Part shown: positions 15,246 through 21,402 of the stretch, piece after piece
How the letters are laid out: each line of letters opens with the position of its first letter
How positions within the stretch are numbered: the stretch's first letter is position 1
Sequence record: PX969468.1
DNA: 64,000 nucleotides
Direction: 5' to 3' (one strand)
Origin: a phage
The notes under the pieces: model-generated
Told to the model about the DNA's origin: nothing
The model's input: only the letters and a program-made list of their open reading frames with translations
The model's database searches: none
Translations under genes and position numbers: made by a program

Positions 15246-16034
15246 TTACTCGGAAACAGGGGTCCAAATATGATTTGCACGATCCTCGATAAGATTGAGT
15301 GCAATCTGACGACCCAACCCGGAACGAACGACATCATCTGGACTATCAAAGCTGATCATTCCAACCTCAGGATCTGGATGGCGAGTAAAGAAATCCGTCA
15401 CCCATGCAAGGCCAGATTTACCAGGGATGTCACGTTGGCTATTATCACCCATAATTACAAGAGTGGCTTGATCAGAGATCCTTGTGATAATTGACAACAT
15501 TTCTTCAGGGTTAGTTTGCTGTGCCTCGTCAATCAGGACAAAGCATCGCTCATCGAAACTACGACCACGAATGCTTTCAACTTCACAAATCTCTATACGA
15601 CTGTTCTGACCGTCTCCCAGCATTGCGGCAAAAGCACCTTTGCCAACACGGCGACAAATCGTGTCCATCATGCTTCGAAGATAGGGCCACAGTTTCTGCA
15701 TTGCATTTCCAGGTTTAAATCCTGAAGTCTTTCCTGTCTGAACGTAAGGGCGTGCAACAATGATCTTATCAATCTCGTTCTTACGCAGAAGATCACCTGC
15801 ATATGCAGATGCCATGAACGTCTTACCGGATCCAAACACACCGTTTACAATGATAATCTTACGCGACCCTAGATAATCAAGATACTTTTGCTGCTTTTTA
15901 TTCATTGGTCGGAGAGCTGGAGCGGTGTGCTCTCGTTCGTCAGCAAATTTTTCAGCAGCCTTACGCAGGCGATCAGATTTGCGAGCCTCTCTAGCTTCAT
16001 CACGCATGCGTTTTGTTTCTTTAGCTCGACCCAT
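15246..16034 (-). CDS. phoH: PhoH-like ATPase
   Basis: Walker A GVFGSGKTFMA, Walker B VLIDEAQ, and overall PhoH-like sequence. Confidence 0.75.
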   Translation of the reverse strand: MGRAKETKRMRDEAREARKSDRLRKAAEKFADEREHTAPALRPMNKKQQKYLDYLGSRKIIIVNGVFGSGKTFMASAYAGDLLRKNEIDKIIVARPYVQTGKTSGFKPGNAMQKLWPYLRSMMDTICRRVGKGAFAAMLGDGQNSRIEICEVESIRGRSFDERCFVLIDEAQQTNPEEMLSIITRISDQATLVIMGDNSQRDIPGKSGLAWVTDFFTRHPDPEVGMISFDSPDDVVRSGLGRQIALNLIEDRANHIWTPVSE

Positions 16035-16423: not shown

Positions 16424-16533
16424 TGTTGCACCCCCTCTTCATCTTCATGATGTTTCTTTTCACGCTTGTGTTTTTTCTTAAGCTCAAGCGCAATCTCTTT
16501 CTTGTACGCCTTCTTCAAGGCTTTTTTAGCCAT
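16420..16533 (-). CDS. small Lys-rich basic peptide (37 aa)
   Basis: GGAGG RBS; MAKKALKKAYKKEIALELKKKHKREKKHHEDEEGVQQ. Confidence 0.45.
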   Translation of the reverse strand: MAKKALKKAYKKEIALELKKKHKREKKHHEDEEGVQQ

Positions 16534-16597
16534 TTGGCACCTCCTCTGCTTTCATTTTACGATAATTATACCTATCTAAACAAAGCTTTGTCAACAA

Positions 16598-17071
16598 CTA
16601 GTCTACCTGGACCCAACCGCCTGCTACTTTTTTAAACATTCTTTGGTTATCGCTACCTCGGAACGGTTTCTTGGTTGGTAAATCTTTTACATACTTACCG
16701 TCAATGATGATATCAGCCAGTTTAAGAACATCACTAGAGATATGGTCAAATGTGAACCCAGTATATACAAGAATAGTTTTCTTGTCACCAAATTTTTCCT
16801 TAATTTTCTCCATCAGGCTAATAATATCTGGCTCATTATAGTATGCTAAGGGTTCTCCACCCAGCAGAGAGATACCGCACACAGACGGGTTATCTAAATC
16901 TGACAAGATTTTTTGCAAGTCTTCTTCAGTGAACTCTCTTCCCTTATCTTTTGACCAAAATGCCTGATTAAAGCAACCAGGGCAAGCGTGTGGGCACCCA
17001 GATACCCACAAGGCAGTTCTAATACCTGGCCCTTCGGTATAAGATATTTCTGTGTATCCGGCAATGTTCAT
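16598..17071 (-). CDS. nrdG: anaerobic ribonucleotide reductase activating protein (radical SAM)
   Basis: CxxxCxxC-type cluster (GCPHACPGC), GGEPL motif, NrdG size, adjacent to nrdD. Confidence 0.8.
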   Translation of the reverse strand: MNIAGYTEISYTEGPGIRTALWVSGCPHACPGCFNQAFWSKDKGREFTEEDLQKILSDLDNPSVCGISLLGGEPLAYYNEPDIISLMEKIKEKFGDKKTILVYTGFTFDHISSDVLKLADIIIDGKYVKDLPTKKPFRGSDNQRMFKKVAGGWVQVD

Positions 17072-17193
17072 AGATACTCCGCATCACATTCAGGACAATG
17101 CCAAATAAAATCATCAAGTGCCTTGCACCAACGAAGATTGCACTTACAACCGCAGTGTTTACAAATTTTTACTTTAAAGCCACCAGATGACAT
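17068..17193 (-). CDS. small Cys-rich zinc-ribbon-like protein (41 aa)
   Basis: AAGGAG RBS at 5 nt; seven Cys (CKHCGCKC...C...CPEC); stop overlaps the nrdG start. Confidence 0.5.
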   Translation of the reverse strand: MSSGGFKVKICKHCGCKCNLRWCKALDDFIWHCPECDAEYL

Positions 17194-17254
17194 AACAACT
17201 CCTTAATTTACAACGGACTGAAGGGCTAGAATAAAGCTGGCCCTTTGTGTGTTA

Positions 17255-18415
17255 TTATTTATTAGCAAATTTCTTCAAATGTTCTTCTACTAGCTCGAAT
17301 ACCTCCGGTCTGTAGTAGAAGAACTCTCGACAGCCATCAAACTTCTCTGTGAAGTTGATTTTGTATTGGCTCAAGGCTTGGTGCATAGCTTTTTCTAAAG
17401 TTTGCATGTCGTCTGTTGTTCCTTCCCAAGTTTTTATAACATGTAGATCAGAGAATCTAGCACCAGCTTTTTTAGCTCTTTTTAACACATCTTTTCTTCG
17501 TTCATCTACCCGGACACTCACACCAATTTTCATCATAGTTGGTACTTCCAGATCGTCAACCATGATATAAAGGCTACCATGTTCATGAGATAAGAAGCCG
17601 ACTTTAGCACATTTTTGACAGCCAGCTTTTTGGTTGATGTGGACAAACGGTTTTTGTGTGAACTCCCCGTGAATCGGACAGATGATAGTGACCTCTGTCT
17701 CCCTATTAACATATTCCACCCCGGAATAATCGTATTTATCTTTATGGATAGCTCTGGCTCTTGCCTCAAACCTTTTAGCCACCTCAGATGCTTTCTTTCT
17801 CTGCGTCTTCCTACTAACCTCGGCCACCTTCTTCTTCCCGCACTCGGGGCAACCTTTTCCACTTGGTGCATGGTCATGAGGTCTTTGTGGGAAGTGAGCA
17901 CCACATGTATTACAGATTATCTCCACTTTATCATTACCGGTTTTATAATTTACAAGAGAGTAATCATACTTATCGCCATGAAGCGCTTTTGCCTCAGCGA
18001 TCCACTCTTCAGTAGTCTTTCTCTCAGTTCCTCCACACTTACGGCAACCCCCCTCGCGGAGATGGTTATCAGGCTTTTGCTCAAACTCGCCGTGAACAGG
18101 ACAAACAATCACAACTTTAGTTTTAGCATTTACATACTCTACCTTAGAGTAATCATATTTATAATTATACTTAGCCTCGGCCTCCGCTTTAAATTTTTCA
18201 GCAGAAGCCGCTCTTTCTGCTTCAATCTGACATTTTGGGCAACCCTGTTTTTTACGGAGGTGATCTCCAAGAGTTTTCTTAAATTCTCCATGCTCAGGGC
18301 ATATAATTACAACCTTGGTGTGTGCACCCACATATTTGACTTTGGAATAATCATATTTATCACCATGAACTGCTTTCGCCCCCTCTATAAAATCTTCGGT
18401 TGTAAGTTTTCTCAC
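17255..18415 (-). CDS. repeat protein: four tandem ~60-aa zinc-ribbon-like modules plus C-terminal T5orf172/GIY-YIG-like domain (possible mobile endonuclease-like protein)
   Basis: Four repeats of YDYSKV.YV...TKVVIICPxHGEF...HL...GCxKC; C-terminus LYIM...MKIGVS...R...DLHVIK...REFF. Family assignment is from memory. Confidence 0.45.
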   Translation of the reverse strand: MRKLTTEDFIEGAKAVHGDKYDYSKVKYVGAHTKVVIICPEHGEFKKTLGDHLRKKQGCPKCQIEAERAASAEKFKAEAEAKYNYKYDYSKVEYVNAKTKVVIVCPVHGEFEQKPDNHLREGGCRKCGGTERKTTEEWIAEAKALHGDKYDYSLVNYKTGNDKVEIICNTCGAHFPQRPHDHAPSGKGCPECGKKKVAEVSRKTQRKKASEVAKRFEARARAIHKDKYDYSGVEYVNRETEVTIICPIHGEFTQKPFVHINQKAGCQKCAKVGFLSHEHGSLYIMVDDLEVPTMMKIGVSVRVDERRKDVLKRAKKAGARFSDLHVIKTWEGTTDDMQTLEKAMHQALSQYKINFTEKFDGCREFFYYRPEVFELVEEHLKKFANK

Positions 18416-18481
18416 TGCTGAATCCTCTTAGTTCTCGTCTTTGAACTAAGGGTGCCACATCCTTGTGGCTTTTGTCAAGTA

Positions 18482-19744
18482 TCAGCAACCACAACTTCCG
18501 TAGTGCTTAACTCGCTCGATAACTTCCGCTTGCTTACCTTTATTGTAAGGACGGGAGTTAGGACTGGAAAGGTATCCAGATACACGCCTGATCACACTGA
18601 TCGTACCTTCCTCATGGTTTCCACAACAAGGGCATATAAAACCTCTTGGAGAGGCTTTAAATTCTCCCTGGAAACCGCACTTGAAGCATTGGTCAACAGG
18701 CTGGTTTATACCGAAGTACATAATGTGTTTATACCCGAAGTCAACAAGAGCCTCTAAAGCATCCAGGTTGTTTTTCAGGTTAGGTGTTTCTACGTATCCG
18801 ATGTTGCCACCAGAGGAGATCATAGCAAAACCTTCCTCATACTCCCACTTATCAAAAGGAGAGCTATTTATCCATACTGGCTGATGGAAACTGTTGGTGA
18901 GATATTCATGCTCGTGCTTCAACACTTCCGGATATTCACGATCCAGACAGGTTGCAGCTTTATAGCATAGACTCTCAGAAGGAGTGCCGTACAAGCTAAA
19001 TGCTAGTCTACTTTCCTTCTTGTATCGCTCACAAGCATCTCTCATGTGCTGAAGGATTTCAAGAGCTAAAGCCTTGTCACCCTCTCTACCCAAAATCTGA
19101 CAGGTTTCATACACACCGATATACCCAATACTGATGGAAGCGTACCCGTCATAGAAGAGTTTATCAATACTCTCTTCAGGATCCAGGCGAGCAAGAGCGC
19201 CTTCACACCACATGATGGGGTTCTGCCCTGCCTTTGTTCCTTTTAGACGATTAACCCTTACAAGGTGAGCCTCGTATGCAAGATCCAAGTATTCGTCAAG
19301 AACTGCAAAGAAATCAACACCTTCCGTCTTGGCTTTTGCCGCAATCATTGGCAGGTTAAGGCTAACAACACCTAAGTTAAATCTACCAAGGTATTTCTCC
19401 TCGCCTGTTTCCAAGTCATTGTATTTGCTAAGAAAACTCCGGCAACCCATGCTCGTTACTTTGCCATCTGTCGAGCCTGTCACTTTTCTATTTAGTGGTA
19501 CAGATACGAAGTCAGGGTAGATACGTTCTGCACAGCATTCCAGAGCTAATCGTTTCAAATCATAGTTAGGATCCCCAGGGTTCATGTTGACACCCTCTTC
19601 CAGGAAGAACAGCACTTTAGGGAACACAGGTGTGATACGTTCTTCACCAAGACCCATTTTGTGGACTTTCAAGTAGTTTTTGGTAATCATTCTACCAAAG
19701 ACCGAGGTATCCAGTCCTAAACTTAATGTGATGAATGGAGTCTG
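18482..19744 (-). CDS. nrdD: anaerobic ribonucleoside-triphosphate reductase, exon 2
   Basis: In-frame extension upstream of the track ATG reads QTPFITLSLGLDTSVFGRM..., continuing T4 NrdD-like sequence; glycyl-radical motif RVSGYL and CxxC pairs at the C-terminus. Confidence 0.7.
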   Translation of the reverse strand, partial: QTPFITLSLGLDTSVFGRMITKNYLKVHKMGLGEERITPVFPKVLFFLEEGVNMNPGDPNYDLKRLALECCAERIYPDFVSVPLNRKVTGSTDGKVTSMGCRSFLSKYNDLETGEEKYLGRFNLGVVSLNLPMIAAKAKTEGVDFFAVLDEYLDLAYEAHLVRVNRLKGTKAGQNPIMWCEGALARLDPEESIDKLFYDGYASISIGYIGVYETCQILGREGDKALALEILQHMRDACERYKKESRLAFSLYGTPSESLCYKAATCLDREYPEVLKHEHEYLTNSFHQPVWINSSPFDKWEYEEGFAMISSGGNIGYVETPNLKNNLDALEALVDFGYKHIMYFGINQPVDQCFKCGFQGEFKASPRGFICPCCGNHEEGTISVIRRVSGYLSSPNSRPYNKGKQAEVIERVKHYGSCGC

Positions 19745-20541
19745 CTGTCTCCTCTCTGTGTTTCCACAGGGCCAGACTATCTCTTACTCTACTTCAATAA
19801 GATAATAACCCTTTATTGTGAGATGCTTACCTTCGGCATTTCCTTCGATAGCCCTATGAACGTTACCTACGTTCAAATTTAAGGCTTTTGCACAGGCATA
19901 AAGTGAAGGATATTCACCCACCAAGGTTTTCCCTTTATATGCCTGCACTTTCCTATAGCACTTACCTGGACAAAGTCCTGTTCGGAAAGCATGTCTCTTA
20001 TTATCTTCCGGCAAAACCCACTCTAGGTTAGACGGATGATCATTCAATGTATTGCCATCTTTATGATTCACTTCCCAGTTTTCAGGATCTTCTGGGACAT
20101 CTGGCAAACAATACAAGGCAACAATCCTTGAGGTTTGGATTCGAATCTTTTTACCTTTGTGGTTGAAAGAGTACATATAACGGCGTTTAACATGCTTGTT
20201 ACCTTTTCCATAACCTCCCCACAATATTGGGTGTAGCATTCCACGTTTTCCGTATACGTTTCCAACCTCATCAATCACATAGTTTGATTCTTCACCATTA
20301 AGAATGATCTTTTTCATAGAGCCTCTCCATTTCGAAGTTAGTATTTCAACTAACCCCTACACTACTTGGTTCAGAAATGTTTGTCAAGCATCTCTGCCTT
20401 TCGTTAGTCGTTACAACCGTTCCAACTCCTGTAAGAACTAGTCACGGGATTGGCATAGCTTTCGCCTTAGCGTTCCCCGTTAGCCGGATTTACCGACCCC
20501 TCTTATGAGGTTAGGAGAGTTTTACAACGGCCAGTTTGTTA
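19745..20541 (-). mobile_element. putative group I intron interrupting nrdD (about 797 nt) carrying an HNH endonuclease ORF
   Basis: Exon 1 ends ...TSVNG on a U; exon 2 resumes at QTPF after a G; the interval holds 224 nt non-coding, an HNH ORF, and 39 nt. T4 nrdD is known to carry a group I intron. Confidence 0.65.
19784..20317 (-). CDS. HNH homing endonuclease (intron-encoded)
   Basis: HNH motif VNHKDGNTLNDHPSNLEWVLPEDNKRHA. Confidence 0.65.
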   Translation of the reverse strand: MKKIILNGEESNYVIDEVGNVYGKRGMLHPILWGGYGKGNKHVKRRYMYSFNHKGKKIRIQTSRIVALYCLPDVPEDPENWEVNHKDGNTLNDHPSNLEWVLPEDNKRHAFRTGLCPGKCYRKVQAYKGKTLVGEYPSLYACAKALNLNVGNVHRAIEGNAEGKHLTIKGYYLIEVE

Positions 20542-21402
20542 ACCGTTGACAGAAGTTAACGTATTGATTTGGTAGAGCAAAGTCTGCATACTATCAAACA
20601 CGTCTTTATCTGTCATTTGCATTGCAACAGTCTCAGCATCTGGCAACCAATGTTCCTGACAAAATTTAAGGTTCTTCTCGTAGGTTGCTTCAGCATACTG
20701 TGCCAGATAATGATCAATATGGCTCATGGTCTGACCACCATATTGAGCACTAGCTACTGCACTAGAGATTTGGCTAAGGATTGTTGTTGCAACCCCTATT
20801 GACTTCGGCTTACTGACATGGGCGTTGCCAATGTTGAATCCGTTTTCCAGCATATCCGGATAATTTACCAAACAACAGTTTGTTAACGGACTGATCAGGT
20901 AGTCAAGATCATGCACATGGATGAAGCCTTTGTTGTGCTCTTCGGAGACACGGTCTGGCAGGATCTGTGTTGATGCAAGATGTTTGCTAAGGATGCCTGC
21001 AAGCAGGTCACGATGAGTATGAACATGATTAGTAGGCTTATTTGCGTTTTCTTTTGTAAATTCATCACAAGTTCGATCCAAGAAGCCACTAATATCTGCA
21101 AGCAGTTTTCCACCTGCCTCTCTGTTATTATCTCTTGTCTGTCTGTACTGGATGTATTCTCTGGCTGCACATTTTAAACCCATATCCATAAGAGCATCTT
21201 CAACAAGGATATGGATATTTTTTACAGAGATCGTGCACTGATCGGTTGGTAGATTGTTAGCAACAACTTCATTAACCGCACAGGCGATCCGGTAAGCTTC
21301 TTCTTCAGTATGTCCAGACTCAAGTAAGGCGGACTCTGCCGCCTTGATCACCTTAATTCCGTTATAGAACTCTTCTCTACCGTCCCGTTTTACAACTTTC
21401 AC
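20542..21402 (-). CDS. nrdD: anaerobic ribonucleoside-triphosphate reductase, exon 1
   Basis: ATP-cone N-terminus (KVVKRDGREEFYNGIKVIKA); ...KGFIHVHDLDY...GFNIGNAHVSKPKSIGVATTI... matches T4 NrdD from memory; ends at an in-frame stop inside the intron. Confidence 0.7.

Follow-up and report, generated by a model that had tools for sequence, protein, structure and literature searches.

The stretch of DNA analysed here (the window) comprises 64,000 nucleotides of a phage genome, sequence record PX969468.1. An earlier note, made from the letters of this window, had pointed to an open reading frame between nrdG and nrdD, next to an intron-carrying gene, and had proposed a mobile-endonuclease-like insertion. 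The reading frame is real: it runs on the minus strand, encodes a protein of 386 aa and begins with a GTG codon that has AAGAGGA 7 nt upstream of it. Its position between the two nrd genes was described correctly, with a 41-aa ORF intervening on the nrdG side, and the neighbour on the other side, nrdD, is split by an intron that bears an HNH ORF (Table 1). Beyond the HNH ORF, going upstream, follow nrdD exon 1, a glutaredoxin-like ORF, nrdB and nrdA. In a profile search the 386-aa protein matched PHROG 681, 'endonuclease' (E 5e-81). A 97%-identical protein, P0001, is named 'GIY-YIG nuclease family protein' by NCBI, and the same gene is annotated in phage SophiaRose as 'putative GIY-YIG nuclease family protein'. 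No paralogue was found by tblastn within the 64-kb window beyond the gene itself. Base composition was considered as a sign of foreign origin and is uninformative, as the gene has 41.4% GC and the window 42.8%.

Table 1. Features of the nrdG–nrdD region of the window, in window coordinates.
Feature	Position	Strand	Details
nrdG (anaerobic RNR activase)	16598..17071	minus	downstream flank; Pfam Fer4_12 9.4e-43 and Radical_SAM
41-aa Zn-binding Cys-rich ORF	17068..17193	minus	between the 386-aa gene and nrdG; phrog_20137 'ribonucleotide reductase' 2.2e-24
Mobile cassette	17135..18452 (17135 approximate)	minus	5' UTR, gene, 3' UTR and remodelled first ~55 nt of the small ORF
Endonuclease-like gene	17255..18415	minus	386 aa, GTG start, TAA stop; ORF list and Pfam/PHROG matches
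T5orf172/MUG113 nuclease domain	17258..17584 (aa 278-386)	minus	conserved Y283, K296-I-G298, S300, R306, E341, H345, E364-F-F
Zn module 4, type A	17609..17785 (aa 211-269)	minus	CPIHG...CQKC
Zn module 3, type A'	17840..18019 (aa 133-192)	minus	four Cys: CNTCG...CPEC; DUF4379 best stretch aa 161-194
Zn module 2, type A	18035..18208 (aa 70-127)	minus	YKYDYS...CPVHG...CRKC
Zn module 1, type A	18230..18406 (aa 4-62)	minus	HGDKYDYS...CPEHG...CPKC; DUF723 best stretch aa 26-62; pLDDT ~94
Cassette hairpin in 5' UTR	18424..18452	minus	CCCUUAGUUC-8 nt-GAACUAAG.GG; pairs part of Shine-Dalgarno AAGAGGA (18423-18429)
nrdD exon 2	18482..19745 (ORF list: 18482..19690)	minus	upstream flank; hyper-divergent patch ~18553-18700
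nrdD intron	19746..20542	minus	797 bp, splits nrdD, bears HNH ORF
HNH ORF	19784..20317	–	inside nrdD intron; HNH_3 6.8e-7

A megablast search with positions 16500-19800 matched 121 phage records, almost all of them from Vequintavirus (rV5-like coliphages), and the window itself is from a Vequintavirus, an rV5-like phage of E. coli. The full query was covered by two of the 121 records, SophiaRose (97.2%) and O157 typing phage 14 (96.9%); in most records the match extended over about 60% of it, and the stretch spanned on the record fell about 1.2 kb short of the query length. The order in phage nimi is nrdD, a short spacer and the small ORF. Aligned to this arrangement, the insertion corresponds to window positions 17195..18452, 1258 bp in place of 33 bp in nimi. 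A 401-bp probe across the nimi-type junction showed the empty junction to be contiguous in 91 phage records. The nuclease domain, searched for by tblastn at 55% identity or more, was present in 29 records, 27 Vequintaviruses and two lambdoid phages, and the shared locus was confirmed for the Vequintaviruses in those records whose coordinates were checked. The 1258-bp insertion itself occurs only in SophiaRose (99.9%) and typing phage 14 (99.5%). The comparison of nrdG-nrdD spacing in relatives that the earlier note had suggested thus sets the empty records against about 27 occupied ones, of which two have the allele of the window, and about three quarters of the phages that are otherwise near-identical and have the same nrd genes lack the gene. 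Judged from these alignments, the gene is an insertion, sporadic at a fixed site, with the intact empty site in close relatives. Together with the homology to nuclease and DNA-binding families described below, its absence from most relatives supports the mobile-endonuclease-like insertion.

The protein contains four tandem repeats in units of 63-64 aa (aa 4-67, 70-133, 133-196 and 211-274), with a basic helical linker (aa 193-210) ahead of the fourth Zn module. The motif YDYS recurs at aa 21, 87, 150 and 228, each time followed by a C-x2-H/C and then a C-x2-C knuckle. The earlier note had counted the four repeats correctly and had called them near-identical, which they are not: their pairwise identity is 38-52% at the protein and 47-60% at the DNA level. 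A complete four-ligand Zn set is present in each module, C-x2-H...C-x2-C in modules 1, 2 and 4 and C-x2-C...C-x2-C in module 3. The protein matched the Pfam families DUF723 (1.4e-14, 54.1 bits, cut-off 20.9) and DUF4379 (4.9e-12, 46.3 bits, cut-off 24.5), and the CapR profile scored 15.9 bits, under its cut-off of 24.2. In a full-length AF2 model the modules have a pLDDT of 87-95 and consist of an alpha-helix, a beta-hairpin with the first knuckle, and a short helix, with the second C-x2-C at the N-terminus of the next helix. Because of this arrangement of helix, hairpin and knuckles the modules, as modelled, look treble-clef-like and not like the classical zinc ribbon that had been proposed for them. 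Treble-clef-like modules agree with the Pfam description of DUF4379. A Foldseek search of the full-length model against the PDB found nothing at E ≤ 1e-3, so that no solved relative of the Zn module is detectable by fold search, and a PDB search with a sequence profile gave chance matches only. By analogy with CapR, the modules would bind Zn and would bind DNA at specific sequences (PMC10448857). Arrays of DUF723/DUF4379 modules are present in at least 8000 proteins, from metagenomes. Among the matches listed, most are proteins of 450-670 aa that do not have the T5orf172 domain; the alignment consensus of the array proteins ends in another C-terminal motif, DFYxP...ExxGxQ, which we read as a putative PD-(D/E)xK-like nuclease domain.

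At the C-terminus, T5orf172 (PF10544) matched aa 282-372 (6e-6, 27.1 bits, cut-off 20; profile positions 3-92 of 101) and MUG113 (PF13455) matched aa 296-384 (4.9e-7, 30.7 bits, cut-off 22.3). The motifs of these families are Y-I/V in strand 1, K-I-G-x-S/T in strand 2, an Arg in helix 1, E..xH in helix 2 and E-F/W-F near the C-terminus. All of them were found, as Y283-I, K296-I-G-V-S300, R306, E341...H345 and E364-F-F. In a word-indexed search, aa 264-386 found 17 homologues. Most of these are 165-200 aa long and combine a single Zn module with the same domain; they include P0126 from the lambdoid phage mEp013 and P0131, attributed by NCBI to E. coli. The domain was also located by tblastn in mEp013 and mEp021. 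In the alignment of 17 sequences, K296, G298, S300, R306, E341, H345 and E364-F-F are invariant and Y283 is nearly so. The GIY-YIG superfamily has an alpha/beta fold, in which a three-stranded sheet has helices on its flanks; the AF2 model made for aa 205-386, of modest confidence (pLDDT 64, with 72-78 for the core), has the order beta-beta-alpha-beta-alpha-beta-alpha. Of the T5orf172/GIY-YIG-like assignment made earlier, the first part holds, with T5orf172 and MUG113 above their cut-offs; the canonical GIY-YIG family (PF01541) gave no match to the protein at E ≤ 0.1. Likewise, hhalign against the catalytic domain of I-TevI returned nothing (probability 0.06%). The link to the GIY-YIG superfamily rests on the Pfam clan assignment and on published alignments (PMC8263062). 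Odn of phage ICP1, a T5orf172 protein, is a proven nuclease that needs the conserved Glu (PMC8263062). No match annotated as 'Hef' was among the search results for the protein. The NCBIfam search gave no match and the best PADLOC match, PDC-S57, was marginal (E 7e-4, 17 bits), and for these two reasons an identity as a defence system was dropped.

Since the gene lies inside the nrdD-nrdG operon, which is rich in Zn-binding proteins, with CxxC pairs also in NrdD and the 41-aa ORF, its product might be thought to belong to the anaerobic ribonucleotide reductase system, as a subunit with an accessory or regulatory role. This is highly improbable: so many near-identical phages keep the same nrd genes and have no such gene, its domains belong to nuclease and HEG (homing endonuclease gene) families, and thousands of metagenomic proteins have this Zn array joined to different C-terminal domains.

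At least seven alleles occur at the site, which share the nuclease module and differ in their Zn arrays. The nuclease modules of ECML-10, phiWec189, nom, inoa, JEP1, Mangalyan and PMBT16 have 55-91% mutual identity, that of inoa being the same as that of PMBT16. The arrays are built from three types of Zn module: A (DUF723-like, CPxHG), A' (CNTCG) and B (DUF4379-like, 'CRCKxCxHEW...GHGCPRC'). Their order is A-A-A'-A in the window allele, A-A-A' in phiWec189, A-A-B in inoa, A-A'-B in nom, A'-B-A in JEP1, A-A'-B-A in Mangalyan and A-B-B-B in ECML-10. The third module of the window has its counterparts at different places in the arrays of other phages, as module 1 of JEP1, module 3 of phiWec189 and module 2 of nom. 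Modules 1-2 of Mangalyan are 95-97% identical to modules 1-2 of nom, and its modules 3-4 are 93-95% identical to modules 2-3 of JEP1; on these identities the Mangalyan allele is a clear recombinant of the nom and JEP1 alleles. In PMBT16 and inoa, a sister allele is split or has lost its 5' part.

Both sides of the insertion are 98-100% identical to nimi with the exception of two tracts, the last ~60 nt beside the insertion on the nrdG side (64% to nimi) and the patch at ~18553-18700 in nrdD (62-84%). Within the first tract, the start of the small ORF reads MSSGGFKVKICKHCGCKC (+9 nt) in the window, against MSSGIYKICKCGC in all other phages examined, with or without an HEG allele; among 122 matching records, the MSSGGFKVKICKHCGCKC variant was found only in the two other carriers of the insertion. 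Since the variant is restricted to carriers, the remodelled start of the small ORF belongs to the cassette. Over its 1318 nt the cassette has one mismatch to SophiaRose and seven to typing phage 14, while the adjacent 200 nt of nrdD have 51 and 38 mismatches, respectively. The state of the nrdD intron also varies, from 797 bp with the HNH ORF in the window to 254 nt without an ORF in SophiaRose and no intron in typing phage 14, and as it is found in these three different backgrounds the cassette is independent of the intron. Homing, or recombination associated with an HEG, would be expected to leave such a near-identical cassette that ends sharply against diverged backgrounds, and the near-identity favours a recent transfer. 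The exchange-boundary pattern also matches a theme of Barth et al. 2023 (PMC10448857).

The haplotypes of the nrdD patch are different in all three carriers, and that of the window has a best match of 80.6% among 50,697 phage records. A firm claim that the patch is the target or immunity site was rejected, the same allele being found with three patch haplotypes; as these do not track the HEG allele, the patch gives no target location. Our best guess for the place of the target or of self-immunity is the 5' end of the 41-aa ORF.

Sharp exchange boundaries adjoining the gene could also be produced by a site-specific nuclease whose main use is to attack competing phages or satellites, which would cause marker exclusion, with homing as a by-product. 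Odn, a T5orf172 nuclease redirected against the origin of a satellite, is a precedent (PMC8263062), and the short form with one Zn module and the same nuclease module is present in mEp013, mEp021 and E. coli prophages. We regard this as distinctly unlikely to be the main role of the gene, because many alleles at one fixed intergenic site with an empty counterpart are the signature of homing and not of a defence gene, and because the marginal PADLOC match is the only one to a defence family. It also overlaps with the explanation preferred below and does not exclude homing.

A bolder idea, which we hold tentatively and think more likely wrong than right, is that the junction serves as a natural testing ground for zinc-finger nucleases built of modules. 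The alleles would have kept one T5orf172 cutter and swapped, duplicated and reordered modules A, A' and B, with the effect that cleavage is retargeted. An arms race would then be under way, with escape variants in two neighbouring host sequences, the beginning of the 41-aa ORF and the Zn-ribbon patch that nrdD has in the window alone. If this were true, and if each module read a fixed short DNA word, pairs of alleles and targets could give a recognition code, which would serve a DUF723/DUF4379 family with at least 8000 metagenomic members and no solved structure.

No convincing sigma-70-like promoter was found directly upstream of the 386-aa gene, and for this reason its translation probably depends on the operon transcript. 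The empty site also has the TTGACA at 18474-18479, whose -10 partner has been replaced by the insertion. Two matches to the promoter consensus are predicted inside the coding region on the minus strand (18193->18164 and 17559->17532). The 5' UTR, folded as part of 18395-18490, gives -31.8 kcal/mol (z = -5.6), with one hairpin that belongs to the host backbone (18454-18469) and one that belongs to the cassette (Table 1). Among T4 endonuclease genes, masking of the ribosome-binding site by a hairpin is a familiar feature (PMC2988022). The cassette hairpin is kept in the ECML-10 allele with a G-U pair, and it carries little weight because several other alleles do not have it. A hairpin in the 3' UTR (17219-17247) was rejected as a terminator, its fold on the gene strand being no better than that of shuffled sequences (z = -0.16).

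We consider it likely that the gene is a free-standing T5orf172-type HEG, of a branch of the GIY-YIG superfamily, inserted in the nrdD-nrdG operon of a Vequintavirus. Strung out like beads, the four treble-clef-like Zn modules would each read a short stretch of DNA and would jointly recognise a long site in phage genomes that do not have the gene, and the C-terminal T5orf172 domain would cut close by. In a mixed infection, the broken genome would be repaired by recombination from the carrier, which would copy the 1.3-kb cassette together with adjacent markers. Protection of the carrier itself may come from the insertion, which takes the place of the empty junction and gives the small ORF a new sequence over its first ~55 nt. 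Read from the operon transcript, the gene would have its translation damped by the hairpin over the ribosome-binding site.

According to Barth et al. 2023, active homing and a domesticated nuclease are not distinguishable from sequence alone (PMC10448857). The gene could accordingly be a domesticated or decaying former homing endonuclease whose Zn array still attaches to DNA, perhaps repressing the nrd operon or another promoter in the manner of CapR or I-TevI, and which no longer spreads itself. Repression has precedents in CapR, whose Zn modules are related and which is a transcriptional repressor in PLE satellites, and in I-TevI, which doubles as a repressor (PMC10448857, PMC2988022). The allele is moreover rare; present in only three known genomes, it is not spreading widely among sequenced phages, and decay does occur at the locus, as in PMBT16 and inoa. 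We nevertheless find domestication unlikely, as the residues of the nuclease motifs are intact and invariant, none of the three carriers has a shortened ORF and only 4 aa differ between them, and the near-identical cassette in diverged backgrounds argues for recent transfer.

The main gain from the finding, taken alone, is better annotation, as most homologues at the site are labelled 'hypothetical protein'. Some neighbours at the locus are mislabelled 'minor capsid protein'. The multi-allele, module-shuffled locus and the unique nrdD patch of the window are of some local interest, and the classification is affected by neither. With one site, one nuclease module, many arrangements and dozens of near-isogenic genomes, of which some have the gene and others do not, the locus is a compact natural series. 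It is convenient for testing how T5orf172 enzymes choose their targets and how repeat shuffling affects specificity, and for seeing how HEGs create recombination boundaries in coliphages that are candidates for therapy.

Among known systems, ICP1 Odn (Gp88) belongs to the same nuclease family and is the only member cited here for which cleavage has been demonstrated. Its conserved Glu is E180, of which E364 of the 386-aa protein is the proposed equivalent (PMC8263062). Unlike the gene of the window, Odn has no Zn-module array and does not lie at an nrd locus; its DNA-binding part is a RepA_N domain that was acquired from a satellite and turned against the same satellite.

The site itself has a parallel in T4, in which nrdD and nrdG are targets of seg and mob endonucleases and mobC, of the HNH type, sits between nrdG and nrdD (PMC2988022). 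As in T4, a free-standing endonuclease gene lies in the nrdD/nrdG gap of a large lytic coliphage, the occupancy of the site is variable and different endonuclease genes alternate. The segH gene reportedly takes the place of mobC in relatives, going by the title of a 2005 paper by Sandegren et al. The nuclease of the window is of the T5orf172 and not of the HNH type, and its DNA-binding domains differ as well; because the phage lineages are unrelated, the use of the same site by mobC and by the gene of the window is convergent. With I-TevI and the Seg proteins the protein shares the beads-on-a-string plan, in which a catalytic domain is tethered to DNA-binding modules, and the genes share RNA hairpins that mask the ribosome-binding site. 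In contrast to these proteins, its nuclease domain is C-terminal, the domain order thus being reversed, and the second Tyr motif has become K-I-G. DNA binding is assigned to repeated Zn modules with no helix-turn-helix, and sequence similarity to I-TevI and Seg is not detectable (Pfam PF01541, hhalign).

Barth, Dunham and Seed 2023 described phage T5orf172 HEGs as N-terminal CapR/DUF723/DUF4379 repeats joined to a C-terminal T5orf172 domain, with ICP1 gp165 and gp174 and the HEGs of Vibrio phage Helene among their examples (PMC10448857). These genes are enriched beside ribonucleotide reductase and other essential genes, their repeats are degenerate, recombination takes place between modules, and they are positioned at exchange boundaries (PMC10448857). 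The modular architecture that the earlier note had called unusual is therefore typical, and the architecture, the link with RNR genes and the module shuffling of T5orf172 HEGs have already been described (PMC10448857). The gene differs from those HEGs in its host lineage, a Vequintavirus of E. coli (neither 'rV5' nor 'Vequintavirus' occurs in that paper, PMC10448857), in repeats that match DUF723/DUF4379 with CapR below the cut-off, and in the presence of at least seven alleles at one intergenic site. It resembles them in its Zn array joined to a T5orf172 domain, its free-standing state, its place beside RNR genes, its degenerate and recombining modules and alleles, and its location at an exchange boundary, and it is a typical, already loosely annotated member of this recently described family of selfish elements and not a new kind of element.

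The nrdD gene of the window carries a divergent tract in exon 2, whose product is the C-terminal Zn ribbon directly ahead of the glycyl-radical motif RVSGY. Sequence on either side is 98–100% identical to that of nimi, a relative without the endonuclease gene between nrdD and nrdG; within the tract 29 codons differ from nimi, 20 of them synonymously and nine nonsynonymously. The top match to the tract among 50,697 phage records reached 80.6%, and at least three haplotypes of it are in circulation. The tract may be the product of gene conversion from an unsampled donor; alternatively, it may be a variant that escapes some endonuclease. Haplotype and adjoining endonuclease allele did not track each other.

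Features in and around nrdD and nrdG, and a second endonuclease gene, in the window and its relatives
Feature	Position	Size	Strand	Remarks
nrdD divergent tract	window 18553-18700	~150 bp	minus	within exon 2
nrdD intron	window 19746-20542	797 bp	minus	interrupts nrdD
HNH ORF inside nrdD intron	window 19784-20317	177 aa	minus	HNH_3 / I-HmuI-NUMOD-like
Second "GIY-YIG nuclease family" gene, SophiaRose	L011 5768-6697 = MW748998 92143-93072			record annotation
Additional small ORF before nrdG, inoa	L006 2753-2989			
Additional small ORF before nrdG, Mangalyan	L008 3190-3426			
Additional small ORF before nrdG, PMBT16	L009 3166-3402			

The ends of the nrdD intron were set by colinear alignment to the intron-less O157 typing phage 14. 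SophiaRose has a 254-nt version without an ORF. The Rfam group I intron model scored only 28–30 bits (E-values 4e-4 and 8e-6; gathering score 50). The second GIY-YIG-annotated gene of SophiaRose is an insertion flanked by two phoH-like genes, and no counterpart was found in the window at its PhoH-like ORF (15246..16034). The phoH-like locus is a further variable endonuclease site within the genus.

Upstream of nrdG, the small Zn-binding ORF is conserved in every relative examined except nimi (L004, MN850626), in which the ninth of its 38 codons is an in-frame TGA, at a position where other phages have TGC (Cys). Either the ORF is truly knocked out in nimi or the TGA is an error of sequencing; the nimi record does not annotate this ORF. 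In inoa, Mangalyan and PMBT16 one or two additional small ORFs separate the 41-aa ORF from nrdG, one of which is labelled "putative minor capsid protein". The same label is given to nrdG itself in nimi and nom, where it is a propagated annotation error. About 20 GenBank records (MG0656xx, e.g. MG065644, MG065647, MG065653 and MG065659) are titled "Campylobacter phage" with C. jejuni as stated host. They are 90–99% identical to E. coli Vequintaviruses over the nrdD-nrdG region, and their host label looks doubtful.

Among the matches listed in the metagenomic homologue alignment (A2, P0003-P0120), long homologues of 450–670 aa mostly have at least six DUF723 modules, and most end in a "DFYxP...ExxGxQ" motif in place of T5orf172. 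This region looks like a candidate PD-(D/E)xK (Vsr/DUF559-like) nuclease domain; with such a domain as an alternative to T5orf172, the same DNA-binding array would be paired with at least two nuclease types.
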